Source: an uncultured Elusimicrobia bacterium
GTDB taxonomy: Bacteria; Elusimicrobiota; Elusimicrobia; UBA1565; UBA9628
Length of the DNA: 54,760 nucleotides
Assembly: GCA_964358065.1 (NCBI GenBank)
Contig: CAYHNV010000002.1
Span: forward strand, 1 to 54,760
Direction: 5' to 3'
In this document: one piece after another, positions 7,215-43,074 of the stretch
Layout: every line of letters begins with the position of its first letter
How positions within the stretch are numbered: position 1 is the stretch's first letter
Program-made: the position numbers and the translations under genes
Notes under the pieces: model-generated
Database searches by the model: none
Told to the model about the DNA's origin: nothing
The model's input: only the letters and a program-made list of their open reading frames with translations

Positions 7215-7215
7215 G

Positions 7216-21241: not shown

Positions 21242-22000
21242 ATGTCCTCCTCGCAGCCTCTGACGGATCCGGAGTTCTGGGACCGTTTTTGGGGGAACGT
21301 CCGTCTGCCAGCGTTTCCGGACGCCTCTCGGCGCTACGAGCGCTGCTTCCTGGAGATCTTTGAGCGTTTCTTTAAGCCCGATCCAGGCCTCCGGGTTTTT
21401 GAAGCCGGCTGTGCTCCCGGTGCTTGGCTTTCCTATTTCAGCCGCCATTTCGGTTATCAGGCTTACGGCTGTGACACGTCGCCGCGTGGGGTCGAACTGA
21501 CGCGGGAGAATTTCCGCCTTTGCGGCATCGCCGGCACGGTGGTCCAGACGGAATTTCTGGATGTTCCCGGCGAGGGCACCTTCGATGTGGTCTTGTCGCT
21601 GGGCTTCATCGAGCATTTCGCCGATCCGGGCCCCGTGCTGGACAAGCATGTGCGCCTGCTTAAGCCGGGGGGAGTTCTGGTGCTTGAGGTCCCGAACCTG
21701 GTTGGTCTCAACGCCTGGCTGGTTACCCCAGAATTGCTCGCGGTGCATAATCAGACGGTCATGAATAGGCTCTTTTTCGAGGACTTCGGGAGAAGTCGGG
21801 GGCTGGAAACACTCTTCCTGGGCTATATCGGCGGCTTCGAGCCGGACAACTTGGGGCCGCCGCGCCCGGCGCTGCTGCGCCGTGTCGTGCTGAAGGCGCT
21901 TCGAATCCTGCGGGCTCTTCCAGGCACGGGCAAGCTTAATTCCGTTCTCTTCAGCGGCTTCCTGATCGGTCTCTACCGTAAGCCGCGCGAAGTGCGCTGA
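21242..22000 (+). CDS. class I SAM-dependent methyltransferase
   Basis: ATG at 21242 (the track starts at TTG 21221). VFEAGCAPGAWL and LKPGGVLVLE. Confidence 0.7.
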   Translation: MSSSQPLTDPEFWDRFWGNVRLPAFPDASRRYERCFLEIFERFFKPDPGLRVFEAGCAPGAWLSYFSRHFGYQAYGCDTSPRGVELTRENFRLCGIAGTVVQTEFLDVPGEGTFDVVLSLGFIEHFADPGPVLDKHVRLLKPGGVLVLEVPNLVGLNAWLVTPELLAVHNQTVMNRLFFEDFGRSRGLETLFLGYIGGFEPDNLGPPRPALLRRVVLKALRILRALPGTGKLNSVLFSGFLIGLYRKPREVR

Positions 22001-23736
22001 AGCGTCTCTTCGACGAAAGCCCGGACAGCCGGCAGGCTGGGATCGAGGCCGCGGCCGTGGCGCGACAGGTATTCGGCGCGTGCCGCCTCCTCGCCGCAGG
22101 GGAGCTCCCCCGTGATCCAGAGCTCGAGAAGGGCGATGAAGGCATCATCATCCGCCGCGCAGGCGGCGGCGCGGCGAAGCGCGGGCTCGCCTTCCGGCGC
22201 GACATGAAATGGATCGCCGATATGGCAGGCAAGTTTGGCACCTTTGGCCATGGCCTGCAGCAGGCCGGTGCAGGGGTAATCCATGATGATGCCCTCATAG
22301 CCTGAAAAATAGCGGTCGGGATCGAGAGGAGACTGGTCGAAGCTCACGTTCTTGATTCCGCAGTTGGCGATGAATTCAGACAAAGGTTCATACAAGCACC
22401 AATTGTATTGGGCCGGATGCTGGCGCAGGACGAGGGTTGATTCAGGACGCCGCGCGAAAAGTTTGAGAACGCGGCGGTGGCGGCGGAACATGGCCGTATG
22501 ATCGGTCAGCGGATAGGAAAGGTTTCCGTCGGCGAACAAGGGGTTGCCGGGATTGAGGAGCAGAACATACAGGAACCGGCTTTTTTGCGGGCAAGCGGGC
22601 CGCAACTCGTCGAGCAAGGTGCTGCCCATTCGATAGACGCGGCCATCCGCGCGCAGACCGGAGAGGAAGGCGGCGTCGTCGGAGCCGTAAGCCAGATTAT
22701 GGCTGGCGGGGACGGTTTCAGCCGCGGCTGTCAGCCCGAAATGCTGCATGTAGCCGCCGTGCTGGTAGAAGACCGTAGGTAATGCCTGCGCCTTTAGAAA
22801 GTAATTGACCAAGTATTCCTCGGGCGAACCGCAGAACGTGCTGAGCGCGCCGCGCAGGTCATGGCGTTTGACCAGGTCTGGTATGTGTTCGGATAGGTGC
22901 CGACGCAGGAGCGCGTAGCGCGCGAAGCACTCCAGCGCGATCGCAAGAAGATGCGGCAGAGTCAGCGGCAGCGTCTGTTGGAATTCCTCTTCCAGCGCGG
23001 AACGAAAGCGCGCGGCGGTTTCGTCGTCGGCGGGGGCGCCTCCCAGCACCAGAGCCTCGGCGGCCAGTTCCGCAGCCGTGAACGAGGAGAACTGCGATTT
23101 TAGGAAAGGCCGTAACGGCGCCCAATCGTAGGCGAAGGCGGTCACCAGTCCCGGTTTTACGCCGCGCGGGGCCAAGCGCGCCAGCTTGCGTAAAAGACCG
23201 GCCGGAGTCAGACGCTTGAGGCGATTGACGAGCCGAGGCAGGAGTTCGGACCGGCGTCGTATGAGGGTGTGTCTCTTCGCCGGCACGACCCAGAAATAAA
23301 GAGCGGCGCGGTTGTAGATGTGATCATTCCAGGAGACGGCGGCGCGGGTGTGATGGGGCAGGTCGCTAAAAATATGGACATCGGCCTGCTCGAGCGAGCG
23401 CCGGCGCAGCTCCTCGGCGAGAGCGTAGTCGGCGAGCATCTTGAGTGGCGCCAGCAGGCCCAACCAGCTCTCGCGCTCGGCCCCGAATAGGTCGCGGAAC
23501 ACATGCTCCAGGCGAGTGAAGTTCTCCAGGCCGGAGGCGCGGAATTCGGCGGCATCGACGAGGGCGTCGTTATTCTTGAAAGGGATGTCGGCCTGCTCCA
23601 GCAGCCAGGCGGCCAGCGGGGTGACGGCGTAGACCTCGTCCCAAGGCCGGGCGCGGAGCGCTTCGATCAGGCCGTCTTCGACGACGGGGCGGCGGAGATC
23701 GACGACTGCGATCCGGCCCCTCAGCGTCTCTACCAA
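21973..23736 (-). CDS. hypothetical 587-aa protein, possible KpsC/KpsS-type (Capsule_synth-like) or sialyltransferase-like ulosonic-acid transferase
   Basis: No classical motif at the N-terminus. The C-terminal half has FLYVLLLNPGNPLFADG...LVLRQHPAQ...GIIMDYPCTGLLQAMAKGAKL, which resembles the Q-x-D...K-x-HP...nS-x-x-x-EAl pattern of HP-motif transferases. Confidence 0.35.
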   Translation of the reverse strand: MVETLRGRIAVVDLRRPVVEDGLIEALRARPWDEVYAVTPLAAWLLEQADIPFKNNDALVDAAEFRASGLENFTRLEHVFRDLFGAERESWLGLLAPLKMLADYALAEELRRRSLEQADVHIFSDLPHHTRAAVSWNDHIYNRAALYFWVVPAKRHTLIRRRSELLPRLVNRLKRLTPAGLLRKLARLAPRGVKPGLVTAFAYDWAPLRPFLKSQFSSFTAAELAAEALVLGGAPADDETAARFRSALEEEFQQTLPLTLPHLLAIALECFARYALLRRHLSEHIPDLVKRHDLRGALSTFCGSPEEYLVNYFLKAQALPTVFYQHGGYMQHFGLTAAAETVPASHNLAYGSDDAAFLSGLRADGRVYRMGSTLLDELRPACPQKSRFLYVLLLNPGNPLFADGNLSYPLTDHTAMFRRHRRVLKLFARRPESTLVLRQHPAQYNWCLYEPLSEFIANCGIKNVSFDQSPLDPDRYFSGYEGIIMDYPCTGLLQAMAKGAKLACHIGDPFHVAPEGEPALRRAAACAADDDAFIALLELWITGELPCGEEAARAEYLSRHGRGLDPSLPAVRAFVEETLQRTSRGLR

Positions 23737-24566
23737 GTCGTTCGACCGCCGTCGATGACGACGTTGGTCCCCGTCATGTAGGAGGATGCGTCGGATACCA
23801 TGAATTGGACGGCGCCCTTGTACTCGTCTTTGCGTGCCATGCGCCCGATGGGGATCAGCGACGAAAGCCGCGCGACGAAGTCCTCATTCTGGTTGTGGCG
23901 TACTCCGCCCGGCGACAGGGTGTTGACGCGCACGCCGTCCTGCGCCCAATAGGTGGCGAGGTAGCGGGTCAGGCCCACGAGCCCGCTCTTGACGACGGAG
24001 TAGCTGACGGGTTTGACGGGCTGGTCGCGCTCGGCAAGGCCGGGCCGGCGATAGAGGCGCTGGTCGGGCGCGATCACCGCCAGATCGGACGCGATATTGA
24101 GGATGACGCCACGTCCGCGCCGAGCCATCTCGGCACCCAGCACGCGGCTGCACAGGAAGGCGCCCGTCAAGCCGACGGCCAGGTCCTTTTCCCATTGCGC
24201 GACGGGAAAGGCCTCGAGCCGCGACCAGTGGCCGCCGCCCTTAGCCGACGGGCCGACTTTTGGGTCGTTGGCGGCGTTGTTAATCAGGATGTCCACGCGG
24301 CCGAAGCGCTTGAGGACGGTCTTAAGAAGATCTTTGACGCATGCCTCGTCGGTGATGTTGCAGCCGACTCCCAGGGCCTGGGTTTTGAAGCGCTTCGCCA
24401 AAGAGGCCGCAGCTTTGGTCGCCTTGGCCGCGTCGATGTCGGCGAGGACGGGACGGCCTCCGGCCTCGGCCACGGCCTCGGCGTGCATGAGGCCGAGCAG
24501 GCCGGCACCGCCGGTGATGACGGCGACGCGGCCATTGAGCCTGAATCGGGACAAGGGTTTCGTCAT
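23730..24566 (-). CDS. short-chain dehydrogenase/reductase
   Basis: VAVITGGAGLLG, NNAA, YSVVKSG (YxxxK). Confidence 0.8.
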   Translation of the reverse strand: MTKPLSRFRLNGRVAVITGGAGLLGLMHAEAVAEAGGRPVLADIDAAKATKAAASLAKRFKTQALGVGCNITDEACVKDLLKTVLKRFGRVDILINNAANDPKVGPSAKGGGHWSRLEAFPVAQWEKDLAVGLTGAFLCSRVLGAEMARRGRGVILNIASDLAVIAPDQRLYRRPGLAERDQPVKPVSYSVVKSGLVGLTRYLATYWAQDGVRVNTLSPGGVRHNQNEDFVARLSSLIPIGRMARKDEYKGAVQFMVSDASSYMTGTNVVIDGGRTTW

Positions 24567-25339
24567 GAGAGGCTCCTGGTCTGTCCGCCGTCGACGACGA
24601 GCGCGGCTCCGGTGATGAAGGCGGCGCGGCTCGAGGCGAGGAAGGCGACGGCGTCGGCAATCTCCTTGGGAGAGCCGAAGCGCGCCATCGGCACTTTGGC
24701 GCGGATGTGTCCGGTCACCTTGGCGCTGTCTTCCTTGCGCTTAATGTCCCACGTGCCGCCGGGGAAATCGATATTGCCCGGTACGACGGCGTTGACTCGG
24801 ATGGAGTCCTTCGCCAGGTCGCGGGACAGAGCCTTCATCCACGCGTGCAGGGCGGCCTTGGCCGATGAGTAGGCGACCGGCGCGCCAAGATCCTCGAGGC
24901 CGGCGATTGAGCCCACGATGACGATGGCGCCGCCCTGGCGCTTGAGCGCGGGAGCCGCGTGGCGTACGGCGCAGATGGGCGCGCGCAGGTTCTGGCTCAA
25001 CGCCAGGTCCCAGTCCGCGTCGGTGGGGAGGGAGCCGCCGGGGATGCTGCCCGTTCCAACATTGATCGCGGTGATGTCCAGACGCCCCCAGCGCTTCAGT
25101 ATGCCGACGACGGCCGCGGCGGACTGATTGTCCACGGAGAGATCGGCGGCGTAGGCGGCGATTCGATCGGTCCCGAACTCTTTTCCCAGGCATGCGACGC
25201 TTTCGGCCAGTGGCCCGGTCGAGCGCGCGGTCAGGGCGACACGGCAGCCTTCAGCGGCCAGACCGCGCGCGATCGCGAGCCCGATGCCGCGGGATGCGCC
25301 GGCCACCCATGCGACCTTATCCTTGAGCCCTAGATCCAT
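24563..25339 (-). CDS. short-chain dehydrogenase/reductase (FabG-like)
   Basis: AWVAGASRGIGLAIA and YSSAKAAL. ATGA overlap with the downstream SDR. Confidence 0.8.
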   Translation of the reverse strand: MDLGLKDKVAWVAGASRGIGLAIARGLAAEGCRVALTARSTGPLAESVACLGKEFGTDRIAAYAADLSVDNQSAAAVVGILKRWGRLDITAINVGTGSIPGGSLPTDADWDLALSQNLRAPICAVRHAAPALKRQGGAIVIVGSIAGLEDLGAPVAYSSAKAALHAWMKALSRDLAKDSIRVNAVVPGNIDFPGGTWDIKRKEDSAKVTGHIRAKVPMARFGSPKEIADAVAFLASSRAAFITGAALVVDGGQTRSLS

Positions 25340-26183
25340 GTTCCGCCTCCAGACGTCCGATCAAGCCCCGCGCGTATGCCGTGTTCTTCTTGATCCACGC
25401 GACCTCGTCGCCTTCCGTCCCGCGCGCGATTTGGAGGACGAAGTGCCCTTTGTAGGCGCACGCGCGAAGTTCGGCGAATGTCGCGGCGAAATCGGCGCTG
25501 CCGGTGCCCAGCGGGACTGTGCCGCCGCCGCGTACGCGGTCCTTGATGTGGACGCAGGAAATCCAGCGGCCGACGGCCGCGAACTCGTCTTTCGCTCCGT
25601 AGCCCAGCGATGCTGAGTTCCCGATGTCGTGGTTGGCACCGACGGAGTCATGCCCGATTCTCTCGAGTAGGTCGCGGAAAGCGGCGGGTTCCAGCGAAGT
25701 TTCCAAGCACAGCTTGAGCCCGGCGCGGACGGCGAGTGGAGCGGCTTGGCGAAAGACGGAGACGACGGTTTCGAAGGCCGCGGCCGTGCCGATGGCGGAG
25801 GCGTCCACGAAGGGGATGTCCATGTGTTCCAAGCCCGCCGCGCCGGCGGCGGCGATCATTTGTTTCAGTGCGGTTTCGCGGGCGCGCTGTTCCGCGGCTG
25901 GGGCCGAATGGAGGGGGCGGGGAATGAACAAGTCGGCGCAGGCCGAGCGCACCTTCACGCCGGTACGGCGGGAGAGTCCGGCAATCTCAATACGGCCGGC
26001 GTCCGTCATCAGCGGGTTGCTCTCCCAGTCAGGGTCGTCGATAATCCATTCGATGCGTTGAAGCCCGCACTCGGCCGCACGCGCGAACTCTTCGCGCCAC
26101 TGGGTGGCGGGGAAGGACTGGAAGAGGCCGCCTTCCCGCGGCGACAAGCGGCCCTGCATGGTCGCCAGTTCGTGCCGGTTCAT
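25317..26183 (-). CDS. sugar-phosphate isomerase/epimerase (xylose-isomerase-like TIM barrel)
   Basis: Start MNRHELATMQGRLSP at 26183 (ATGA overlap). IEWIID...LETS...HDIGN...HIKD resembles the metal-ligand pattern of the AP_endonuc_2 family. Confidence 0.65.
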   Translation of the reverse strand: MNRHELATMQGRLSPREGGLFQSFPATQWREEFARAAECGLQRIEWIIDDPDWESNPLMTDAGRIEIAGLSRRTGVKVRSACADLFIPRPLHSAPAAEQRARETALKQMIAAAGAAGLEHMDIPFVDASAIGTAAAFETVVSVFRQAAPLAVRAGLKLCLETSLEPAAFRDLLERIGHDSVGANHDIGNSASLGYGAKDEFAAVGRWISCVHIKDRVRGGGTVPLGTGSADFAATFAELRACAYKGHFVLQIARGTEGDEVAWIKKNTAYARGLIGRLEAEHGSRAQG

Positions 26184-26644
26184 TTGGCGACCATCTCCAC
26201 GAGTTCGATGATGGTGCCGTCCGGGTCGTGCGCGTAGGCGACCTTCGTCCTGCCGTCGGGCGAGAGGATGGGGAGATTGTTGACCCTGAGGCCGCATCGC
26301 GTGATTTCCATACACAGCGCCGAGACGTTTGGTACGGTGAACGCCACGTGCGACGCACCCACGTCGTTGGAGCGCCGTTGCTTGGGCGCGGAGCGGGGAT
26401 GGGAGAGGTACTGCAGAAGTTCAACCAGGCCGCCGCCGGGAGCTTTGAGCTTCACCCACTTGATGCGCGCGCCCCTGAGCCCGACCACGGTGTCGATGTA
26501 GGGCCCGCTTTCCGTCATGGTTCGCCAGGGCTTGAGGCCAAGTAGATCGCGGTAGAATCCGAGAGAACGCGCCAAATCCGTCACGACGATGCCGGTGTGG
26601 CGCAACGCCGTGACTCCTAGCGCCTGACGGCGGTTGCGAGACAT
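26180..26644 (-). CDS. VOC/glyoxalase-family protein
   Basis: LRHTGIVVTDLARSLGFYRDLLGL and HVAFTV...DPDGTIIELVE. The start could instead be GTG at 26614. Confidence 0.75.
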   Translation of the reverse strand: MSRNRRQALGVTALRHTGIVVTDLARSLGFYRDLLGLKPWRTMTESGPYIDTVVGLRGARIKWVKLKAPGGGLVELLQYLSHPRSAPKQRRSNDVGASHVAFTVPNVSALCMEITRCGLRVNNLPILSPDGRTKVAYAHDPDGTIIELVEMVAK

Positions 26645-28008
26645 TCGGCCAGGGCCTCCTCGACGACATCGATGCCTTCCATCAGGGCGCTCTCGGAGAT
26701 GGTGAGGGGCGGCCCCATCTTAATGGAGCCCACGCCTGTGCGGATGAGCAGCAGTCCTTTGTTGACGGCCGCCTCCGTGACGCGGTCGCCCAGGTTCACG
26801 TCCAATTCTCCCGGCTTGTCGCCGGCTAAAAGCAGACCCCATAGCAGGCCGTGGCCGAAGACGTGGGCGACCGCAGCAGGGAAGCGCTTCTGGATGCGTT
26901 CTAGCCGCGCACGGACTTGCGGCTCGAGCCCGGCTGCGCGTTCGGGGAGGCGCTCGTCATGCAGGACTTCGAGCGTGGCGGCACCGGCCGCGGCGCATAG
27001 AGGATTTCCCGAGTGCGTGCTGTTGAGCGAGGGGTCTAAGTTGAGTATTTCCGCGCGGGAGAGCACGGCCGAGAGGGGCACGCCCGAGCTGATGCCTTTG
27101 CCGCAGCAGATGATATCGGCCTTGACCCCGAAGTGTTCGTGCGCGAACATTTTTCCGGTGCGCCCGAAACCGGACTGGACTTCGTCGAAGCACAGCAGGG
27201 CCTGGTGCTTGTCAGCCCAACGGCGCACGGCCGACACGTAATCCTTCGGGTAGAAAAGCGCGGCCCAGCCCTGGTAGGGTTCCATCAGGAAACCCGCGAT
27301 GTCGTTGGCCTGAATGTCGGAGGTCAGCAGGACCTTCATGTCTTGCTCGAAACGTTCCGCGCCTGATGACTTTCCGTTGGCGTCCCAGGGATACGGGAAC
27401 GGGAGGTGGTGGATGTTTGGGTCGAGCGTACCGATCCAGGCCTTGGCTTCGGCGCGACCGGCCATGGTCTGGGCGCCGAGCGTCTTGCCGTGGAAGGAGT
27501 TGGTCCAGCAGATCATCTTGAGCTTCGTGCTGGAGATCGTTCGGCCGCGTAGGCGGCACAGCTTGAGCGCGCACTCGGTGGTTTCCGCGCCCGTCGAGAG
27601 CAGTAAAGCCTTCTCAATCCCGGGCGGAGCGGCTTCAACGAGCAGGCGGACCAGCTTGGCGCGCACGGCGGTGGGAAAATAGTAGCTGTGGACCAACTTG
27701 CCGTCGATCATGTCGCGCATCGCTTTAAGGACATGCGGATGCGAGTGGCCGGTGTTGGTCACGAAAATACCGGAGGTGAAGTCGATCCAGCGGTTGCCCC
27801 ACGCGTCGAAGACAGAGTGGCCCTCCGCGCGGTCCCACACCACGGGCAGTTGGTCCCAGGTCATGGAGGCGGGCTCGTATTTGGAGAGCTCCTTAAGGAT
27901 GGGCAGCGCCTGCGGCGGCGGCTGCGGGGTCACGATGCGGCGGTGGCGCGTCTCGACGCGCGGCACCGAAACGGGAGTGAGGCGCGCGGGGGGGGGATTG
28001 TCGGCCAT
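26617..28008 (-). CDS. class-III (Aminotran_3) PLP-dependent aminotransferase
   Basis: Start MADNPPP at 28008 (TAATG overlap). NTGHSHPHV, FDEVQSGFGRTGKMFA, and the PLP Lys in CCGKGISSG. Confidence 0.85.
   Translation of the reverse strand: MADNPPPARLTPVSVPRVETRHRRIVTPQPPPQALPILKELSKYEPASMTWDQLPVVWDRAEGHSVFDAWGNRWIDFTSGIFVTNTGHSHPHVLKAMRDMIDGKLVHSYYFPTAVRAKLVRLLVEAAPPGIEKALLLSTGAETTECALKLCRLRGRTISSTKLKMICWTNSFHGKTLGAQTMAGRAEAKAWIGTLDPNIHHLPFPYPWDANGKSSGAERFEQDMKVLLTSDIQANDIAGFLMEPYQGWAALFYPKDYVSAVRRWADKHQALLCFDEVQSGFGRTGKMFAHEHFGVKADIICCGKGISSGVPLSAVLSRAEILNLDPSLNSTHSGNPLCAAAGAATLEVLHDERLPERAAGLEPQVRARLERIQKRFPAAVAHVFGHGLLWGLLLAGDKPGELDVNLGDRVTEAAVNKGLLLIRTGVGSIKMGPPLTISESALMEGIDVVEEALAECLATAVRR
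27988..27996 (-). repeat. homopolymeric C9 (G9 on the + strand) in codons 5-7 of the aminotransferase gene
   Basis: Counted directly: ggcgcgcGGGGGGGGGattg. It encodes the PPP of MADNPPPARL. It is the longest homopolymer I found in the window. Confidence 0.9.
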
Positions 28009-28673
28009 TAGTCCAGGCTCCCATGGCGTTCGATGAGTCTCAGCATGATCGCTTCGACTGCCCAAAATTGCGTCACGTTATCGATCTCATAGTTGGCATG
28101 ATCGGGGATGACCATCGTCTCGCGCTTGGCGCCGTACCAGTGCCCTTCAGCGAGATGCGGAGTTTTATGGACATACACATTGCCGTCGTCGTAAAACCAG
28201 CCCTTCATTTTTTGACGGGGGACATTATCCATGGTGCCCCACTCGTACTGGTAAGTCATGAAGCCTGTGGCGAGCGTGTCGACGCCAGTTGCGAAGAAGC
28301 GCTCGATTGCCGAGTCGATGATGCCGCCGATGCGGATGGGGGAGGTCGGTTGAAGGAGGACCAAGGCCTCGGGCTTCTCCTGGCGGACGATGTGCTGGAG
28401 CACGGCGACCGTGGTGGCGCCGTCGTCGGCCAATTCTTTCGGGCGCCACAGCACCTCGGCACCGGCTTTCGTGGACACTGCGGCGATCTCGGCGTCCTCG
28501 GTGGAAACGACGAACCGGTCCAGTCGCCTGGAACGCAGGGCCGCCTCGATGGACCAGACGATCAGCGGCTTGCCGGCGATCGTCTTCAGATTTTTACGCG
28601 GGATACCTTTTGAGCCGCCGCGCGCGGGGATGACTCCGAGAATCATGAGACCCTCACTTTTTTGCCGTCCCAA
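28008..28673 (-). CDS. acylneuraminate (NeuA/SpsF-type) cytidylyltransferase family protein
   Basis: GVIPARGGSKGIPRKNLK...GKPLI. The start is either 28673 or, more likely, MILGVIP at 28646. Confidence 0.8.
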   Translation of the reverse strand: MGRQKSEGLMILGVIPARGGSKGIPRKNLKTIAGKPLIVWSIEAALRSRRLDRFVVSTEDAEIAAVSTKAGAEVLWRPKELADDGATTVAVLQHIVRQEKPEALVLLQPTSPIRIGGIIDSAIERFFATGVDTLATGFMTYQYEWGTMDNVPRQKMKGWFYDDGNVYVHKTPHLAEGHWYGAKRETMVIPDHANYEIDNVTQFWAVEAIMLRLIERHGSLD

Positions 28674-29361
28674 GCAGCATCTGTTCTTTGGAGAAGCGGA
28701 TCCAGGTGTTGACCGAGTCGGGCCAAGGCGCGCGGTCCCAGGGGCGATAAGGCAGCGGGATGAGGGCCGTGAGCCAAGCCAGAGGCTTGAGGATCGGCCA
28801 AGCCCAGAGGGCGGGGAGTTGATGTAAGTAATCTACCGATACATCGCGAAAACCTGCCAAAGTCATCGCGTCCGAGAGCGCGTTGGCGCCGAAAGGCTTG
28901 ATGTGTCCTAGATCCTCAAAGAATATTTTTTGTGTGTGCCGCCAGCTGGGAGTCATCAGCACGACCGTGCCGCCGGGCTTGAGCACGCGCAGGCATTCCG
29001 CGATCATGGCTTCCGGCCGATGCAGATGCTCGACGACCGATTTGGAGAAGACGTAATCGAAGCTGGCGTCGGGAAACGGGAACGCCTGCCAATCAAGGTT
29101 GAGGGTCTTGATCTCGCAGTCGGCGGCGAAGCCGGCGGAGCTGGCGGCGGAATCGACGCCGACGCCGGAAAATCCCAGCCGCACGAATTCCTGCAGGTAC
29201 TCGCCCCGGCCGCACCCGACGTCGAGCAGACGCCCAGGCCGCCCATAGACGGTCTCCGCCAGGCGTCGGGTCAGCCTGGCCGGGTAGATCGTCTTGGGAA
29301 GGCGGCCCAAGGCATAGGTGACTTGGAGATAGTCGGGTTTTCCGGGGGTGTCTGCCTTCAT
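28654..29361 (-). CDS. class I SAM-dependent methyltransferase
   Basis: LLDVGCGRGEYL and LKPGGTVVLMTP. ATGA overlap with the upstream HAD gene stop. Confidence 0.8.
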   Translation of the reverse strand: MKADTPGKPDYLQVTYALGRLPKTIYPARLTRRLAETVYGRPGRLLDVGCGRGEYLQEFVRLGFSGVGVDSAASSAGFAADCEIKTLNLDWQAFPFPDASFDYVFSKSVVEHLHRPEAMIAECLRVLKPGGTVVLMTPSWRHTQKIFFEDLGHIKPFGANALSDAMTLAGFRDVSVDYLHQLPALWAWPILKPLAWLTALIPLPYRPWDRAPWPDSVNTWIRFSKEQMLLGTAKK

Positions 29362-29663
29362 GGCGTTGCGAGCCAGTCCTTGATGTTGACGGCCTTGTCA
29401 TCGATGTAGAGGTCGGCGGTCGGCTTGCCGAAGTACAGTTCGTGGTAGCGTACGCCCCAGTCCCGCATCTGACGCTCGGTCGTCGCGCGCCAGTCGATGC
29501 CCGTCGTCGAGCCTCGGGCCGTGTAAAGCAGTACCCGGTGCTTGGCTTCGAAGAGCGTGTTGACGCGGGCGATGGTCGCCGGCACCGGCAGGGCGCTCTC
29601 GTAGTCGCCCTCCGTGTTGGTGCATAGAGTCCCGTCGATGTCGAAACAGTAAACCACGCTCAA
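29358..29663 (-). CDS. capless (C0) HAD-superfamily phosphatase, about 100 aa
   Basis: TTG at 29663 (TTGA overlap with the neuB-like stop) or GTG at 29657. All four HAD motifs are present: FDIDGTL, LYTAR, GKP, YIDDK. Confidence 0.65.
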   Translation of the reverse strand: MSVVYCFDIDGTLCTNTEGDYESALPVPATIARVNTLFEAKHRVLLYTARGSTTGIDWRATTERQMRDWGVRYHELYFGKPTADLYIDDKAVNIKDWLATP

Positions 29664-30613
29664 GGATTCTTGGGCTGCCAGTAGTAGCGGAGCTTCTTGG
29701 CGTTGGCCGTTTCGACGGGGCTGACCCGCTTGACACCGTCGCCCAAGGTTGCGTTGAGGGATCGCAGGTCGCGCAGCAGATATTCCAGGCCACGCGGTTC
29801 CAGGGAGGCGGACTGGTCGCTGCCGTACATGGAGCGGTTGAGCGTGATGTGGCGCTCGACGGACGTAGCGCCCAGCATGACCGCGATCAGAGGGCCGAGC
29901 AGGCCAACTTCGTGGCCCGAGTAGCCGATCGGGCACTTATAGCGCTCACGCAAGGTCTGGATACACAGGATGTTCAACTCCTCGTCCTTGGCCGGGTAGA
30001 CGGAGAGGCAGTGCATCAAGGTGAACGGGCACTTATGCTTCTTGAAGATCTCGACGGCTGCATCGATCTGGGCGAAGTCGCTCATTCCGGTGGAGATGTA
30101 GGTGTGGCGGCCTTCCTTGGCCACTTCTTCAATGAGCGGGATGTGAGTCAGCATCGGGGAAGCGATCTTGTTGAACGGGAGGTCATACTGCTGCAGGAAC
30201 TTCTGGGCGTCAACGTCCCATGCCGAAGCTGACCACTGGATGCCCAGTTGCTTGCAGTAGCGGGCGATTTCGTCGAACTGCTTCTTACCGAATTCCAGGC
30301 CCTCCTTCTGGTGTCGCGTCGTCGTGCCCCAAGGGCTTTCACGCGGAGTGTCCAGGACTTCCTTGGTGTAGACCTTGTCGAGGGTGCGCTTCTGGAACTT
30401 GACGGCGTCGCAGCCGGTCTTGTGGGCCACGTCGATCAGTTGCTTAGCGATCTCCATGTCTCCGTTGTGGTTGATGCCGATTTCGGCGATTATGAAGACG
30501 TGGCCGGGAATCTGAATCGGACCGCGAATCTCCAAGCCCTTGGGCGCGGAGGCGACACTATTGTTAGTCTGGCTCATCGGATTCTCCTTGGATTTCATGT
30601 TATCGTCCATCAC
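29660..30613 (-). CDS. NeuB-family PEP-condensing sugar-acid synthase lacking the C-terminal SAF domain
   Basis: FIIAEIGINHNGDMEIAKQLIDVAHKTGCDAVKFQKR and GYSGHE. The protein ends about 40 aa after the barrel (..LGDGVKRVSPVETANAKKLRYYWQPKNP). The start is ambiguous (30613, 30598 or 30577). Confidence 0.8.
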   Translation of the reverse strand: MMDDNMKSKENPMSQTNNSVASAPKGLEIRGPIQIPGHVFIIAEIGINHNGDMEIAKQLIDVAHKTGCDAVKFQKRTLDKVYTKEVLDTPRESPWGTTTRHQKEGLEFGKKQFDEIARYCKQLGIQWSASAWDVDAQKFLQQYDLPFNKIASPMLTHIPLIEEVAKEGRHTYISTGMSDFAQIDAAVEIFKKHKCPFTLMHCLSVYPAKDEELNILCIQTLRERYKCPIGYSGHEVGLLGPLIAVMLGATSVERHITLNRSMYGSDQSASLEPRGLEYLLRDLRSLNATLGDGVKRVSPVETANAKKLRYYWQPKNP

Positions 30614-32348
30614 GCAAGGTCGCCATCGCTTTGTCCGATGGGGTCAATGGCTTGGACTGGCGCTCCTGGACGATTCTGCGCAGAGACTTGTAGTCGATCG
30701 GGGGCGGGGCCGGGCGAAGTCTGCCCCGCAGGTGTTCCGCCAGATGGCTGACGAACGTGCGCCATGGAAGACGGGCCGATTCCTGCTTAAGAAGCCAAAG
30801 CCAGATGATAAGGCCGCCGATCGGGTAGCAATAGGCCGAGATGATGTGATATTTGAGGTTGCGTTGGAGATTGAAGTAGCCGCCCTTGGCGTACTCGTTG
30901 CGGCGGAAGAGGTCGCGCAGCGGCGGTCGCGGGAGGTTGTTCACCTTTCGATAGTGATGCGTGACGTCAAGTATGATTTGCCGCCGCCAGGATTGGACGG
31001 CCAGGTAATCGGAGTTGGTAAAATTCAAGAACTTGGTCTCGTCGCTGGCGTTGATGTCGGAGATGTCGAGCAGATAGCGTTCCTCGTCGAGCAAAGTCTT
31101 GCCGATGAGCCCTTTGAGACGGGCGTACTCGTACACGGGCGTTCCCGGCAGGGCCTGGATGTAATTGATGCTCATCCGGTTGATGGGCGACTCGTCGAGA
31201 TGTTCCGTGCTGCGCTTCAGGAACTCAATCGTGTCGCGGATCGTCTTCTCGGTCTCGCCGGGCATGCCCAGTATCATCTGGTAGATCGTGTAGAGGCCTG
31301 CATCCTTGGTCCAGCGGACGGCGTTGTCGTTGTCGCTCTGCGTCGCCTTCTTCTCCATCATCTCGAGGATCTCGGCGCTGCCCGTCTCCATACCGTAATA
31401 GACGGCCACGCAGCCCGAATCCTTGAGCCGCCGCAGGATATCAGGATTGACCGTGCGCACGCGCACGCCGCCGACCTGGTAGAGCACGTCCTCGGCCTTC
31501 ATTGCCTCCGTGAACTCAAGGAGATGGCGCCGGTCGGAGCCGAAGTTCTCATCGGAGATCTGGAGGAAGCCGACGCTGTAGTTCTCTTTCAGATAGCGGA
31601 CCATCTTGATGAAATTGGGGATGTTGAAGGCGCGGAAGCCCTTGTTCCAGCGGTGGCAGAAGGTGCAGCGCGCCACGCAGCCCTTCGTCGTGATCAGCGT
31701 CGCCATCTTCTTGCCTTTTCGGTGCGCTTGTTGGCTGCGGGGATCGGCTGCGAAATCGGGGCGAGTCATCGGATCGTTGACGAAGTTCCCGATGAGGGAG
31801 TGCTTCTCAAGGATCAAATAGTCGGGCTCGAAAAGCTCGTCGGCCGCGATGGGTGCCTCGTGGCCGGTAAAAACCATCTCGCCCGAGGCGTCGAGGTAGG
31901 TGATGCCGGGGATCGACAGCAGGGTGGCTTCGTCCTTTGTGCGGCCGGGATGGGTCTTGAAATAGTTCATCAGGTTGCGGACGACGACATCTCCTTCCCC
32001 GATGACGCAGTAGTCGATTCCGACGAGGCGGTGCAGGATCTCGGCCGAGGCCGCCAGGTTTCCGCCGACGATGATGCGGGCGCCAGGGGCGACGCGCTGG
32101 ATCATGAGGACCAGCTTCTTCGTGTAGGCGTAGGCCGTAGAGACGACGGCGGAGATGCCGACGATGTCAGGTTGGGATTCGGCGAAGAATCGCTCGACAT
32201 CTTCGGGGCTCGGGCGCAGGCCGTCGATGTCGTAGAAGGTAGGGTCCCACCCGTCCTTGCGGAGGCTCTGGATGATAGCCATCGAGCCGAAGGGGGGGTA
32301 GTCGGTGGGAGTCGGGCGGATCGGTGTCGTGCAGATGACGATCTTCAT
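30600..32348 (-). CDS. B12-binding-domain radical SAM protein with a C-terminal hydrophobic extension
   Basis: N-terminal cobalamin-binding-like domain (DIVGISAVVSTAY..IIVGG). CxxxCxxC in TTKGCVARCTFCHRW. C-terminal helix YHIISAYCYPIGGLIIWLWLL. Confidence 0.8.
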   Translation of the reverse strand: MKIVICTTPIRPTPTDYPPFGSMAIIQSLRKDGWDPTFYDIDGLRPSPEDVERFFAESQPDIVGISAVVSTAYAYTKKLVLMIQRVAPGARIIVGGNLAASAEILHRLVGIDYCVIGEGDVVVRNLMNYFKTHPGRTKDEATLLSIPGITYLDASGEMVFTGHEAPIAADELFEPDYLILEKHSLIGNFVNDPMTRPDFAADPRSQQAHRKGKKMATLITTKGCVARCTFCHRWNKGFRAFNIPNFIKMVRYLKENYSVGFLQISDENFGSDRRHLLEFTEAMKAEDVLYQVGGVRVRTVNPDILRRLKDSGCVAVYYGMETGSAEILEMMEKKATQSDNDNAVRWTKDAGLYTIYQMILGMPGETEKTIRDTIEFLKRSTEHLDESPINRMSINYIQALPGTPVYEYARLKGLIGKTLLDEERYLLDISDINASDETKFLNFTNSDYLAVQSWRRQIILDVTHHYRKVNNLPRPPLRDLFRRNEYAKGGYFNLQRNLKYHIISAYCYPIGGLIIWLWLLKQESARLPWRTFVSHLAEHLRGRLRPAPPPIDYKSLRRIVQERQSKPLTPSDKAMATLRDGR

Positions 32349-32620
32349 CGGGGGCGGTGTGCTCCGGTCGCGGACTCAATGACCGCCCAAAGCGTGTCGG
32401 CGCGGCCGGCGCGCACCAAGGATTCTCGGTAGGCCAGGTCCACTGCCGGGGTGAAGACGTCCTTGTAGAAGCCCATGCCGCCCGGCTTGCCTGTCTCAAG
32501 CCAGCGCAGGTGATTGGAAAGATCGTAGCGCTGTATCCCGGTGACTTCGGCCTTGGCGCCGGCGACCAGCGCCGTCCGCGTCAGGAAGCATGCCGTTTGG
32601 GTGGGAACCTTTTTCAGCAA
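32345..32620 (-). pseudogene. 5'-truncated remnant of a class-I methyltransferase (paralog of 20367..21221)
   Basis: Begins at TTG. IQRYDLSNHLRWLETGKPGG...DLAYRESLVRAGRADTLWAVIE aligns by eye with FQRYPLSNHLYWLSCGLPGG...TAAYAASLAAAGKCDTLIAHLE. There is no SAM-binding Rossmann part. Confidence 0.6.
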
Positions 32621-32678
32621 GCCGGTATTATACCACTGTCGAGGGCAAGCCCTGGGGTCGCTGTCGCGGTCATTACGT

Positions 32679-34334
32679 TCACTTGTGCGCGCCCAGCCAC
32701 CCGAAGCCGACGGTCTCCGGCGGGCTGAAGAAGGAATGGGGCCGGGAGCGCTCGAGGATCAGGACGTGCTCGTCATTGCGAATAATTTTGTGGGTACGTT
32801 CCTTGCGAACCAAGGTCTCCGTGATCTTCGCGATCATCGCCGCCGTCACGGGCGCGTTGCGCTTAATGTCTCGCGGGGAGATCATTAGGTCCGCGCGCAG
32901 GTCCTTCGCGGCGTCGGGCTCGAACGGGAAAACCGCGTCAGCGGCATCTTTCTGGATGAGCAGGTAATCCGTCAGATCGAAATAGTCGGGGAACTGCCAG
33001 ATATCCGTGCGGTTCAAGAAAAACCCGGGAATCTGATTATTGGTCAGATACGACAGGCTTTTGTCCGAGGGGAGGGCCAAGGCGGCGGCGATGACGGCCC
33101 GATTGGAGTGTTTCCCGCCGGCCAGGCCGCGCTCCAAGGTGTCGGCCTTCGCCTTCTGGCCGGCGAGTCGATAGATCGGAAGTCTCAGGCTGTTGGGGAG
33201 ATGCCCGGCCAACGCGCGCAGGGAGACGGCAAAAAAGAGGAGGCATGATCCGGCGATGGCATAGGTTCGCCGGTGGCCGGACATCTTCGCCTCCGAGTTC
33301 GGTCCGCCGATCGTCCGGAGTAGAGCGAGATAAACGAAGGAGAAGACCGGCAGCAGGTGATGGGCGCCGCCGACGACGAAGGACTCTCCCCAATGGGGCA
33401 GGGCTGGGAGAAGGGCCAGGCCCGCGATTTTAAGCGTTTGCTTCTTGTTTGGTCGACCGAAGAGGAAGGCACCGAGGAGAAAAGCGGGGAGGAGCGTGAG
33501 CGCGGGCAGCAAGGATTTTAGGTTTTCAAGCAGGAGGGCCAGATTCATGTGGAAAATTTCCTTGACGAGATGCATGGTCGTGGAGTCTTCCATGAGCCGG
33601 AGATGAATGCGGGAAGCCGGCTGCATCCAGAAGAGTGTCAGCGCGGTGTAGGGGATTGCCACGCAGGCGCCAAGCCACGCGAAAGACTTTCTTCCGGGCT
33701 CGAGCAGGAGGATGTAGGCCAAGAAGGCGATGGCGACCATGGCGGAATCCTCGGAGACCAAGCACAGCGCCGCGATGGCGAGGAGAAATAAATTCAGCTT
33801 CTTCGTCAGGAGGCAGTAATAGACAGCCAGAATCACGGGTCCCGCAAACAGCAGAAATTGGGCCATCTGTGCCATGATCGGCAAAAGGCCGCCGATCGCG
33901 AGCACGCTGAGCGCGAAGGCGATTTTGGGTCCGGAATCATCCGGGGAAAGCCGGCGCAGAATGAGGTGCGTAAAGAAGGCGCCGCCGATCAAGTTCCACG
34001 CGAAGATCAGCCCGTAAAGGCAGGCGGGAGTCGGATGAAACGCCCACAGATAAGCGAAAAGATACGGCAGCCAGTTCACGTGGATGACGTTTGCGTGGAT
34101 GAACGCATCCGGGTTGTGCGTGAAGCCCACCGAAACGCCTGCCAGGTCCGTGGCGTAGATGGAGCTTTGGAAGGGGCGTTCGTGGAGAAAGTTATAGAAG
34201 AGCTGGAGCGGCCACATGAATCCAAAGCCCGAGAAATTCGACAGTGTGGACTCGAGATTGAAGAAGAACGAGCCGTAGAAAAAAGACCCGATGAGCGCAC
34301 AGGCGGACGCGAACGCGGGGATGAATCGTCTCAT
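32679..34334 (-). CDS. large polytopic membrane protein, GT-C-like (DUF2079-like, uncertain) with a C-terminal soluble domain
   Basis: More than 10 hydrophobic helices over about 400 aa, then a hydrophilic tail of about 150 aa. HVNWLPYLFAYLWAFHPTP resembles the DUF2079 pattern. Confidence 0.5.
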   Translation of the reverse strand: MRRFIPAFASACALIGSFFYGSFFFNLESTLSNFSGFGFMWPLQLFYNFLHERPFQSSIYATDLAGVSVGFTHNPDAFIHANVIHVNWLPYLFAYLWAFHPTPACLYGLIFAWNLIGGAFFTHLILRRLSPDDSGPKIAFALSVLAIGGLLPIMAQMAQFLLFAGPVILAVYYCLLTKKLNLFLLAIAALCLVSEDSAMVAIAFLAYILLLEPGRKSFAWLGACVAIPYTALTLFWMQPASRIHLRLMEDSTTMHLVKEIFHMNLALLLENLKSLLPALTLLPAFLLGAFLFGRPNKKQTLKIAGLALLPALPHWGESFVVGGAHHLLPVFSFVYLALLRTIGGPNSEAKMSGHRRTYAIAGSCLLFFAVSLRALAGHLPNSLRLPIYRLAGQKAKADTLERGLAGGKHSNRAVIAAALALPSDKSLSYLTNNQIPGFFLNRTDIWQFPDYFDLTDYLLIQKDAADAVFPFEPDAAKDLRADLMISPRDIKRNAPVTAAMIAKITETLVRKERTHKIIRNDEHVLILERSRPHSFFSPPETVGFGWLGAHK

Positions 34335-37256: not shown

Positions 37257-38237
37257 ATGGCCGAGGCGAGGGTGGCGGCGGATTGCGCCGTTTGCGGAGG
37301 CAGCCGCGCGGAACTCGTATTCCGGGCGCAGGATTCCGACGGCCTTTCCTCGGAGCCGTTCGGTATCGTCCGCTGTGCCGTATGCGGCATGGTCTACGTC
37401 AGCCCGCGCCCCGGCGGCGCGGATCTGGGCCGCTACTACGTCCGCGGCTACTACGACAAGCCGGGAGAGGATTCCGGGGGCGCGGGGCGCCGGCTGGGCC
37501 GGCTCTTCATGGCGGAGCGCGTCGCGAAGGCGGCCTGTGGGCTCCCCGCCGGGCGGGTCCTGGACATCGGCTGCGGCGAGGGGACGTTCCTGGCCGCGAT
37601 GTCCCGGCGCGGCTGGGACTGCTGGGGCGTGGAGGTGTCGGCCGAGGGGGCCGCGCGCGCGTCCGCGCGCCCGGGCCTGACTGTCCTGGCCAAGCCGCTC
37701 GAGGAGTGCGGCCTTGAGCCCGAGAGCTTCGACCTCATCACGCTGTGGCATTCGATCGAGCACGTGCCGGACCCTGCGGCGCTTCTGCGCCAGGTCGCAG
37801 CACTCATCAAGGACGACGGACGAGTTTTTCTGGCGTTTCCGAACGCCGCGAGCTGGGATTTAAGGCTCTTCGGCGCGCGCTGGTTCCACCTGGACCCGCC
37901 GCGGCATCTTCATTATTTTTCGCCGGAAACGATGAGCCGCGTTCTCAAGGAGTGCGGGCTCCGCGCGGTTCGTGTCAGCCATTTCTCGCTCGAGTACAAT
38001 CCGTTCGGTTTCGTGCAGAGCGTGCTGAACTTCGTGACGAGCCGGTTCAATTTTCTCTATCGGAAGCTGAAGGGTACGCTGCCGCTGGACGAAGCCGAAT
38101 CGGCGGGCGACCGCACCGTCACGATCGTTCTACTTCCGTTCCTGACGCTGCTGGCCGTTCCCTATTCGTTCCTGGCGGCTTTATGCGGGTCTTCGGGCTG
38201 CATCGACGTTCTCGCCGAAAAAGATGTCGCGCGCTGA
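37257..38237 (+). CDS. class I SAM-dependent methyltransferase with an N-terminal Zn-ribbon
   Basis: CAVCGG...CAVCG and VLDIGCGEGTFL. The C-terminal part is hydrophobic. Confidence 0.8.
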   Translation: MAEARVAADCAVCGGSRAELVFRAQDSDGLSSEPFGIVRCAVCGMVYVSPRPGGADLGRYYVRGYYDKPGEDSGGAGRRLGRLFMAERVAKAACGLPAGRVLDIGCGEGTFLAAMSRRGWDCWGVEVSAEGAARASARPGLTVLAKPLEECGLEPESFDLITLWHSIEHVPDPAALLRQVAALIKDDGRVFLAFPNAASWDLRLFGARWFHLDPPRHLHYFSPETMSRVLKECGLRAVRVSHFSLEYNPFGFVQSVLNFVTSRFNFLYRKLKGTLPLDEAESAGDRTVTIVLLPFLTLLAVPYSFLAALCGSSGCIDVLAEKDVAR

Positions 38238-38240
38238 GGT

Positions 38241-39155
38241 CTAGTCGAGGTGCGAGCGTTCGGGATCAAGGAAGAATACCGGTCGGCCGGTGACATTCTT
38301 GTAGGTGCGCGCGAGATAGAGCGAGAGCATTGGCAGGGCCAGCAGCAGGAAAAGAAACCCCATCACGCCGGCCAGGGCCCCGGCCTCGACCAGTGACATA
38401 CTCAGCGCGGCGGACAGCAACAGGTACGCGCCCCCGAAAGCGGCCGATAAATAAAAAATAAGGCGCAGGGGGAAGGTTGATGAGGCCAGAAAGCCGCCGA
38501 TGGCAAACTTCGCCATGCTGAAGAAGTTGTAGTGTGAGGTTCCGCGCAGGCGCGGCTGCCGGGCGTAGGGCACGCCTTCCATGCGCAGACCGACGTAGGC
38601 GAGCTCGGCGCGCAGGAATGGGAATGTCGTCTTGTTGGCCAGGATGTAGTCGCGCACCGGTCGGGTGAACATCCCGAACTCCGCCATCCACAGCTTGATG
38701 GGCCCATCGGCGATATGCCGGTTGACCCAGTAGAACAGCCAGCGGAAGAAGATCAGGTGGGGCGGCTCGGGGCGCTCGCTGCGGATGCCGTAAACGGTCT
38801 GCGCGCCGTTCGCGACGGCGGCGTGGAATTTCGCAAGCAGTTCCGGCGGGTCTTCGCCGTCGACGTCGATGATTGCGTAGAGGTCGGCGTCCGCGCTGGA
38901 GAGACCGGCGACGAGGGCGCAGTGATAGCCGAAGTTGCGCGACAGCGTGGCAACGCGCACGCGCGGGTCCTTCTTGCGGAGTGCCAGGATCTTTTCGAGC
39001 GTGTCGTCGGTGCTCGCGTCGTTGACGAAAAGGAGCGCCCAGTCGAGTGGAAGAGCGTCGAGCGTCTTCTTTGCGGATTCATAGAACGGCTCGACGTTGA
39101 CCGACTCGTTGTGGCAGGGCACGACGACAGCGAGCTTCTTTCGCGCGGTCACCAA
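38241..39155 (-). CDS. GT2 polyprenyl-phosphate glycosyltransferase (GtrB/ArnC-like)
   Basis: LAVVVPCHNE, LFVNDASTDDT, IIDVDGEDPP. Two C-terminal TM helices. Confidence 0.75.
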   Translation of the reverse strand: MVTARKKLAVVVPCHNESVNVEPFYESAKKTLDALPLDWALLFVNDASTDDTLEKILALRKKDPRVRVATLSRNFGYHCALVAGLSSADADLYAIIDVDGEDPPELLAKFHAAVANGAQTVYGIRSERPEPPHLIFFRWLFYWVNRHIADGPIKLWMAEFGMFTRPVRDYILANKTTFPFLRAELAYVGLRMEGVPYARQPRLRGTSHYNFFSMAKFAIGGFLASSTFPLRLIFYLSAAFGGAYLLLSAALSMSLVEAGALAGVMGFLFLLLALPMLSLYLARTYKNVTGRPVFFLDPERSHLD

Positions 39156-41381: not shown

Positions 41382-41411
41382 GCGGCGGGGAGTGCTACAA
41401 TTTTCAGCTTG

Positions 41412-43070: not shown

Positions 43071-43074
43071 TATA

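Follow-up and report, generated by a model that had tools for sequence, protein, structure and literature searches.

Comparison with described systems

The described systems closest to the subject of this report are the class B (cobalamin-binding) radical S-adenosylmethionine (rSAM) enzymes and the gene clusters for nonulosonic acids (NulOs). The gene in question lies on the minus strand at positions 30600-32348 of a stretch of 54,760 nucleotides from an uncultured Elusimicrobia bacterium (contig CAYHNV010000002.1, assembly GCA_964358065.1), the whole of which is referred to here as the window. On balance, and with moderate confidence, its product is read as a soluble, or at most peripheral, class B rSAM enzyme acting by an inferred radical methyl transfer in the biosynthesis of a 2-keto-3-deoxy sugar acid activated with cytidine monophosphate (CMP), the class meant being that of the nonulosonic or related ulosonic acids.

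GenK and GenD1 resemble the present family in architecture, with a B12-binding domain and a CxxxCxxC core, and in substrate type, a carbohydrate, and they serve as the model proposed for methylating an unactivated sp3 carbon in a sugar. They differ in acting on aminoglycoside pseudo-oligosaccharides, in belonging to actinomycete antibiotic clusters (gentamicin) and in having no link to NeuB or a CMP-sugar; a C-terminal region ending in PLRxGR was, in the searches run, confined to the present rSAM family. Fom3, of fosfomycin biosynthesis, is a class B enzyme with a CMP-linked small-molecule substrate made by a neighbouring cytidylyltransferase. The pairing of rSAM and cytidylyltransferase genes is paralleled here at 44 of 59 loci, although the substrate of Fom3 is a phosphonate and not a sugar acid. 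Against the models of the related P-methylases (PhpK, Sden_1168) the rSAM protein scores 90-95 bits, with cut-offs at 575-600.

The best structural matches are MgmA/QCMT (9ccb) and TsrM (6wte), with Foldseek E-values of 6e-17 and 4e-16 respectively, and these have the two-domain core in common with the window protein. They differ from it in sequence (14-19% identity) and in their substrates, protein glutamine and free tryptophan; in contrast to the shared core, the C-terminal region of the present family had no significant PDB match when the model of residues 385-582 alone was searched with Foldseek. The apramycin diol dehydratase AprD4 (6fd2) is also matched (E-value 2e-15, TM-score 0.65-0.67 normalised to AprD4) and likewise has a sugar substrate. 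AprD4 is a sugar diol dehydratase, reported neither to use cobalamin nor to methylate. The match of the window protein to its NCBIfam model is confined to the core and scores 46.7 bits, where 500 would be needed.

The canonical NulO pathways (NeuBAC, Pse, Leg) are similar in that a NeuB-family synthase and a CMP-type cytidylyltransferase adjoin the rSAM gene here and at most loci. They differ from the cassette of the window, which has neither a DegT-type aminotransferase nor an epimerase of the uridine diphosphate N-acetylglucosamine (UDP-GlcNAc) 2-epimerase type, and whose NeuB and cytidylyltransferase fall under the NeuB, PseI and PseF equivalog cut-offs.

Domain architecture of the rSAM protein

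The open reading frame (ORF) is intact and encodes 582 aa, with the following features:

30600-32348, minus strand: B12-binding radical SAM gene; intact ORF with full-length homologues at 51-81% identity; AlphaFold predicted local distance difference test (pLDDT) 86.2, predicted template modelling score (pTM) 0.86
31974-32309, minus strand: N-terminal Rossmann-like cobalamin-binding domain, residues 14-125 (PF02310, 72.9 bits, cut-off 32.1)
31218-31694, minus strand: radical SAM core, residues 219-377 (PF04055, 82.1 bits, cut-off 29.5)
31656-31679, minus strand: [4Fe-4S] CxxxCxxC motif CVARCTFC, C224/C228/C231, read in the translation

A first-pass annotation, made from the letters of the window, had described a B12-binding-like domain followed by a CxxxCxxC core, and this order is confirmed by the two Pfam matches and by C224, C228 and C231, which are invariant across 26 aligned homologues. 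The SAVVST, GGN and GEG motifs of the B12-binding domain are invariant in the aligned homologues as well, and PF02310 is precomputed on all 120 listed homologues (120/120). Cobalamin use by the protein is predicted from this domain and from the fold, there being no motif in the sequence that is diagnostic for it or for methyl transfer.

The AlphaFold model was built with 26 homologues, and Foldseek matched it to MgmA (9ccb), TsrM, AprD4, OxsB, CysS and TokK (E-values 6e-17 to 1e-11). The solved class B structures are only 14-19% identical to the protein, and its sequence matches in the PDB are weak. Among the curated NCBIfam models there were 28 matches, all far below their cut-offs, the best being BchE (120.3 bits, cut-off 481); the class B models compared were BchE, PhpK, ApyD, Sden_1168, ladderane, HpnJ, MgmA, BzaD, KedN5, AprD4, HpnR and TsrM-type. 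The protein is a class-B-type (cobalamin-binding) enzyme outside all characterised subfamilies, because its fold matches class B and its scores stay below every NCBIfam cut-off. Orthology to a characterised non-glycan B12-rSAM family, which the first-pass annotation had named as an outcome that would overturn its proposal, was not found among these curated models.

Size and distribution of the family

A homologue search covering 5.8 billion proteins returned 1,629 matches at E-values of 1e-10 or below. The top 120 homologues are 51-81% identical to the window protein over its full length, with 100% query coverage and the C-terminal tail included, and bear generic names such as 'radical SAM', 'BchE' or 'YgiQ'. 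This large class B subfamily, as yet uncharacterised, thus counts over 1,000 proteins, and almost all of them come from uncultured bacteria. When species-representative genomes were scanned, 80 loci were obtained, all from metagenome-assembled genomes (MAGs) or single-cell genomes, with the closest in Elusimicrobia (81%) and others in Nitrospira, Nitrospina, Omnitrophota, Planctomycetes, Acidobacteria, Bacteroidota, Pelagibacteraceae and several proteobacterial classes. Cultured carriers, namely Paramagnetospirillum magneticum, P. caucaseum and Magnetospirillum sp. ME-1, also emerged when profile searches were started from alphaproteobacterial sequences of the family.

In a neighbour-joining tree the rSAM phylogeny tracks taxonomy, with cluster types interleaved, and the association with NeuB or a cytidylyltransferase is seen in every major clade; the window gene is one ordinary member of its subfamily. 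At about 20 loci a second, more distant B12-binding rSAM paralogue lies beside the family member (for example L049, 8415-9989; L029, 11934-13367; L031, 6345-8513; loci are numbered with the prefix L), and a SPASM-type radical SAM gene is present at some (L003, L004, L088).

Genomic context of the family

Gene context was counted by iterated hidden Markov model searches on 59 non-redundant loci of at least 14 kb, with neighbours taken within 10 kb of the rSAM gene. NeuB was present at 36 of these and the cytidylyltransferase domain CTP_transf_3 at 44. In a set of 57 loci, one or the other was found at 47 (82%) and both at 29, on the same strand as the rSAM gene at 31 of 34 loci for NeuB and at 40 of 42 for CTP_transf_3. 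At 26 of the 44 loci that have it, the cytidylyltransferase gene is no more than 3 kb away from the rSAM gene, which exceeds the expectation for even spacing. When neighbouring ORFs were clustered without labels, NeuB/CTP_transf_3 formed the commonest neighbour cluster (59 of 83 loci), followed by NAD-dependent epimerase/dehydratase (45), DegT (32), short-chain dehydrogenase (SDR; 27), an approximately 600-aa protein of the LIC12162 family (23) and class I methyltransferase (22).

The relatives at 79%, 64% and 54% identity adjoin NeuB and CTP_transf_3, both of which lie beside the rSAM gene at the annotated loci L001, L004, L006 and L007, and at several loci the rSAM gene is flanked by NeuB on one side and the cytidylyltransferase on the other, or is their immediate neighbour. 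In ME-1 and P. magneticum the rSAM gene is found inside NulO clusters. The gene order in Magnetospirillum sp. ME-1 is DegT, rSAM, iron-containing alcohol dehydrogenase, NeuB, methyltransferase and cytidylyltransferase, and in P. magneticum the rSAM gene has Leg/Pse-type genes on one side and, on the other, a second set that includes a NeuB-AP_endonuc_2 fusion. A functional tie to the sugar-acid genes, which the first-pass annotation had read from the single placement in the window, is therefore supported across many phyla: the link of the family to a sugar acid is well supported because NeuB or the cytidylyltransferase occurs at about 80% of loci, nearly always on the same strand.

The P. magneticum fusion (L088, 17299-19545) is a 748-aa protein with CBS, NeuB, SAF and AP_endonuc_2 domains, and as a Rosetta stone it therefore ties the TIM-barrel gene of the window, described below, to the NeuB pathway. 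It should also be mentioned that the LIC12162-family protein accompanies the rSAM gene at 20 of the 59 well-covered loci (e.g., L004, 11807-13621; L025, 5377-7197; L090, 4418-6163); it may transfer the modified sugar, and the window has no copy of it. A triad resembling GenK/GenQ/GenB1 (rSAM, dehydrogenase and aminotransferase) was considered as a general rule and was rejected, with both partners within 3 kb at only 10 of 59 loci.

The C-terminal region

Beyond the core, three C-terminal features can be distinguished:

30603-31217, minus strand: family-specific helical C-terminal region, residues 378-582 (approximately 200 aa, no Pfam match)
30771-30857, minus strand: hydrophobic helix-kink-helix, residues 498-526, with a break at Pro509 (AlphaFold, hydropathy and homologue comparison)
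30603-30626, minus strand: C-terminal end motif MATLRDGR, residues 575-582 (family consensus M.PLR.GR-COOH)

The first-pass annotation had noted a tail of about 120 aa containing a hydrophobic helix. The hydrophobic sequence YHIISAYCYPIGGLIIWLWLL is indeed present, at residues 500-520, but the tail forms part of a conserved family domain of about 200 aa and is not an add-on, because every close homologue is conserved over its full length. Landmarks of this region within the family are GGYFNLQR, the hydrophobic helix pair, SLR and the terminal M.PLR.GR. The end motif shows R579, G581 and R582 without exception in 26 aligned members, and a [LMF]RxGR end is retained in most members down to 36% identity (loci L001-L091). 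Such a conserved free C-terminal end suggests a role as a functional plug or in ligand binding. Residues 440-582, used as a phmmer query on a set of 1.84 billion representatives, returned 20 proteins, all of them C-terminal ends or fragments of family members.

When the C-terminal region was folded alone, helices 448-470, 498-526 and 529-542 kept pLDDT values of 87-93. The two helices that flank the kinked pair are amphipathic, and the confident helices of this isolated model fit a helical bundle. On the modelling, the C-terminal region would be a family-specific helical cap domain.

Proposed function and alternative explanations

Taken with its gene context, the predicted sequence features indicate that the enzyme probably modifies a sialic-acid-like sugar. 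In the mechanism proposed, reductive cleavage of SAM at the [4Fe-4S] cluster would yield a 5′-deoxyadenosyl radical, which would remove a hydrogen bound to an unactivated carbon, whether in the sugar acid itself, in a precursor of it or in its N-acyl group; the methyl group would then come from methylcobalamin, on the pattern of GenK, GenD1 and Fom3. The CMP-linked sugar could possibly be the substrate, a precedent for which is offered by the cytidylylated substrate of Fom3, and the helical C-terminal region may cap the active site and select the substrate. The pathway assignment draws on context statistics and the chemistry on the superfamily; methylation is plausible by analogy, and is put forward as an inference because its basis is class B precedent only.

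Several points weigh against this assignment. Neither NeuB nor a cytidylyltransferase lies within 10 kb at 10 of 57 well-covered loci; the rSAM gene has no fixed immediate neighbour, the commonest within 300 bp being a class I methyltransferase at 9 of 59 loci; and the NeuB counts stand without a background rate for NeuB near other glycan genes in these phyla. Queries for DegT and Epimerase_2 found nothing in the window, which lacks the canonical Neu/Leg/Pse enzymes. What is known of the family's function comes from sequence, models and gene context, and the Foldseek match to AprD4 equals those to methylases.

This last point bears on the main rival to methylation, in which an AprD4-type enzyme would work in the same pathway by non-methylating radical chemistry, as a diol dehydratase or deoxygenase, an epimerase, an oxidase or a catalyst of carbon-skeleton rearrangement, with a neighbouring SDR finishing the conversion. 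AprD4, with its reductase AprD3, acts on an aminoglycoside sugar and is also matched by sequence (6fd2, phmmer E-value 9e-10, beside the Foldseek match given above), the two SDR genes of the window cassette would suit such a route, and BchE, HpnJ and OxsB are class B-like enzymes that are not methylases (PMC12931638). The B12-binding domain, however, scores 72.9 bits and is kept in all homologues, the NCBIfam AprD4 model covers residues 183-415 only and ranks well under the BchE/PhpK-type models, and most characterised class B enzymes are methyltransferases (PMC12931638), so that we consider this rival unlikely, though it keeps a real share of the probability. A further alternative is that the tie to NeuB is indirect, sugar-acid genes being common in these large glycan islands, and that the rSAM enzyme modifies another component of the glycan, such as a nucleoside diphosphate (NDP)-hexose or a non-sugar substituent. 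Loci such as L003 (Elusimicrobia, 63% identity), a polysaccharide cluster rich in NDP-sugar genes with neither NeuB nor a cytidylyltransferase within 10 kb, are what such an explanation would predict, as are the frequent epimerase/dehydratase (45/83) and DegT (32/83) neighbours and the want of a fixed adjacent partner. NeuB/CTP_transf_3 is nevertheless the single most frequent neighbour cluster, is enriched near the rSAM gene on the same strand in all clades, and at several loci encloses or directly adjoins it, and an indirect link appears distinctly improbable.

The first-pass annotation had also placed the enzyme at the membrane, with a clear hydrophobic helix as anchor and a lipid-linked glycan as one possible substrate; more generally, the substrate could be a polyprenol-linked glycan or a lipid. 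The 19-mer at residues 502-520 has a Kyte-Doolittle (KD) value of 1.81, the top value among the non-membrane enzymes of the cassette, and a crude Hessa insertion energy of +1.3 kcal/mol, in the manner of the weakest helices of the window's membrane proteins; the true membrane proteins of the window have KD values of 2.08-2.62 and one soluble SDR reaches 1.78. An ABC exporter, an acyltransferase-3 and a DUF2079 membrane protein are encoded directly upstream, the class B enzymes HpnP and HpnR act on lipids (PMC12931638), and a glycerol dialkyl glycerol tetraether (GDGT) ring synthase acting on a lipid is described in a preprint (bioRxiv 10.1101/2025.10.20.683597). Against this, AlphaFold predicts a kinked pair of helices, 498-506 and 508-526, broken at the nearly invariant Pro509, and not a single 21-residue helix, and position 511 (window approximately 30816-30818) is Arg in 111 of 120 homologues (93%) and Gly in the window protein and five others, this Gly511 for Arg being, as judged from the alignment, what makes the stretch resemble a transmembrane helix here. 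The KD value is at least 1.6 in 22 of 120 homologues, the family median is 1.27, and a negative crude insertion energy is found in none of the 120; the conservation of the stretch extends beyond hydrophobicity to particular residues (Y, P, R, W, L), and the tail helices keep their high pLDDT when folded alone. An uninterrupted apolar run of about 19-21 residues with conserved hydrophobicity is not found family-wide and is borderline in the window protein. With Arg and Pro interrupting the stretch in most members, neither the clear membrane helix nor the placement on a lipid-linked glycan is upheld: a true membrane span is unlikely, the protein may at most associate peripherally with the membrane, and the membrane-anchored alternative as a whole is very improbable. 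Taken together, most of what the first-pass annotation described holds, and about half of its interpretation. Better candidates for membrane anchors within the window are the C-terminal hydrophobic segments of a class I methyltransferase (37257-38237, plus strand, KD 2.14) and a family 2 glycosyltransferase (38241-39155, minus strand, KD 2.34).

The predicted sugar-acid cassette and the surrounding glycan island

The rSAM gene of the window is embedded in a minus-strand cassette, given here from upstream to downstream:

32345-32620, minus strand: Zn-ribbon and class I methyltransferase remnant (last approximately 80 aa; 91-aa ORF), its TGA overlapping the rSAM ATG (ATGA)
29660-30613, minus strand: NeuB-family sugar-acid synthase without SAF domain (PF03102, 233 bits; below the NeuB and PseI equivalog cut-offs)
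29358-29657, minus strand: small HAD-like protein with DIDGT motif, putative sugar-acid phosphate phosphatase (weak match to EcbF/BcbF capsule phosphatase)
28654-29361, minus strand: class I SAM methyltransferase (Pfam Methyltransf_23/11; best NCBIfam match the DVU_1556 family, below cut-off)
28008-28673, minus strand: CMP-sugar-acid-type cytidylyltransferase (PF02348, 82.7 bits; NCBIfam PseF 117.7 bits, cut-off 205.7)
26617-28065, minus strand: class III aminotransferase (PF00202, 289 bits; no equivalog)
26180-26644, minus strand: VOC/glyoxalase-fold protein (weak glyoxalase I and VOC matches)
25317-26315, minus strand: xylose-isomerase-like TIM barrel (AP_endonuc_2), putative sugar(-phosphate) isomerase/epimerase
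24563-25339 and 23730-24566, minus strand: two short-chain dehydrogenases
21973-23736, minus strand: 587-aa protein, the last of the cassette (matched in neither Pfam nor NCBIfam)

The methyltransferase remnant reported next to the rSAM gene in the first-pass annotation was verified, as it matches the end of an approximately 300-aa methyltransferase (E-value 4e-39) whose gene, in the closest relative (L009), is complete and immediately precedes the rSAM gene. Since the intact gene precedes rSAM there, a deletion or rearrangement would have placed the DUF2079 gene beside the remnant in the window. A full-length paralogue of the remnant also lies within the island at 20367-21221 (phmmer E-value 6e-15). 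The NeuB-like gene of that annotation is likewise in place directly downstream, and its true start is likely to be the ATG at 30577, which follows AAGGAG. The operon thus has an ATGA overlap on the upstream side of the rSAM gene and approximately 22 nt between the rSAM stop and the NeuB start.

Several of the other genes are kept with the cassette in relatives: the small HAD-like protein in L001, L009, L016, L018 and L072, the class III aminotransferase in L001, L009, L018, L029, L049 and L079, a glyoxalase gene at the position of the VOC gene in L001 and L002, and an orthologue of the 587-aa protein in L001 (E-value 1e-301) and L008. The operon has both a NeuB-family synthase of the type that condenses phosphoenolpyruvate and a CMP-sugar-acid synthetase. 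The precursor enzymes of the canonical routes (PseB/C/H/G, LegB/C/H/G, NeuC) are missing from the cassette, and in their place are found the class III aminotransferase, the TIM-barrel isomerase-like protein and the SDRs. No cassette enzyme downstream of the rSAM gene reaches a curated NCBIfam equivalog. The cassette is non-canonical, and its sugar product can be predicted by class only.

The glycan operon setting claimed in the first pass agrees with the wider surroundings, which form a minus-strand glycan island running from about 43.2 kb down to 9.5 kb. It encodes glycosyltransferases, NDP-sugar epimerases/dehydratases, a TylC3-like C-methyltransferase, an ABC exporter, an acyltransferase-3 and the DUF2079 membrane protein. 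The TylC3-like gene (40107-41420, minus strand) is a classical NDP-hexose C-methyltransferase with Methyltransf_13 Zn-binding and Methyltransf_14 C-terminal domains, and the glycan may therefore also carry a C-methyl branch from non-radical chemistry. An AAA_14/DUF4143 ATPase gene (17947-19089, minus strand) in the middle of the island is unlike a glycan biosynthesis gene. There are four large minus-strand ORFs with no Pfam match, at 6859-9693, 11347-13167, 21973-23736 and 41439-43190 (944, 606, 587 and 583 aa), and the 583-aa ORF, like the 587-aa one, has no NCBIfam match either. The island is flanked on the plus strand (93-2509 and 45110-47830) by two tandem GGDEF diguanylate cyclases and a Ser/Thr protein kinase with a CHASE2 sensor.

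A scan of the window for promoters and terminators gave results at chance level. The G+C content is 0.58-0.60 across positions 28000-34000 and 0.63-0.74 in most other parts of the window; because of this dip across the rSAM/NeuB cassette, horizontal acquisition of the cassette is hinted at.

Possible link to ten-carbon ulosonic acids

Ulosonic acids with a ten-carbon marker, for which no biosynthetic route has been given, have been detected by mass spectrometry in Magnetospirillum gryphiswaldense (PMC8157484; bioRxiv 10.64898/2026.04.20.719630). A C-methylase acting on the backbone would fit such C10 compounds, and it is in keeping with this that P. magneticum and ME-1, both of them cultured relatives, have rSAM family members within their NulO clusters. 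Profile searches with alphaproteobacterial seeds gave no named M. gryphiswaldense protein among the 120 best matches, and a cluster look-up of the unnamed NCBI matches for a link to this species returned MAGs only. That the family is the missing enzyme which adds a backbone carbon to CMP-activated nonulosonic acids, giving higher-carbon (C10) ulosonic acids, is offered as a lead only, and one that we think has a slim chance of proving correct.

Significance

Nonulosonic acids decorate flagella, S-layers, capsules and lipopolysaccharide, and shape recognition by phages and the immune system. Their tailoring as known so far comprises N-acylation, O-acetylation, O-methylation and epimerisation. 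No paper that connects radical SAM enzymes to nonulosonic, legionaminic or pseudaminic acid, or to NeuB, came up in a literature search for such pairings, and the NulO cluster papers that were retrieved never mention a radical SAM enzyme. A search on C-methylation of polysaccharides found nothing relevant, and a 2026 review of B12-dependent rSAM enzymes does not mention sialic or ulosonic acids (PMC12931638).

If the proposed function is correct, a widespread cobalamin-dependent radical enzyme devoted to these sugars would add C-H functionalisation, probably C-methylation, to the known tailoring of NulOs, and part of the diversity of cell-surface glycans would be tied to the availability of cobalamin. 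There would also be a definite candidate among known genes for the making of the ten-carbon ulosonic acids. To the enzymology of radical SAM proteins the family adds a large, uncharacterised class B subfamily with a new predicted class of substrate and a distinctive C-terminal region.

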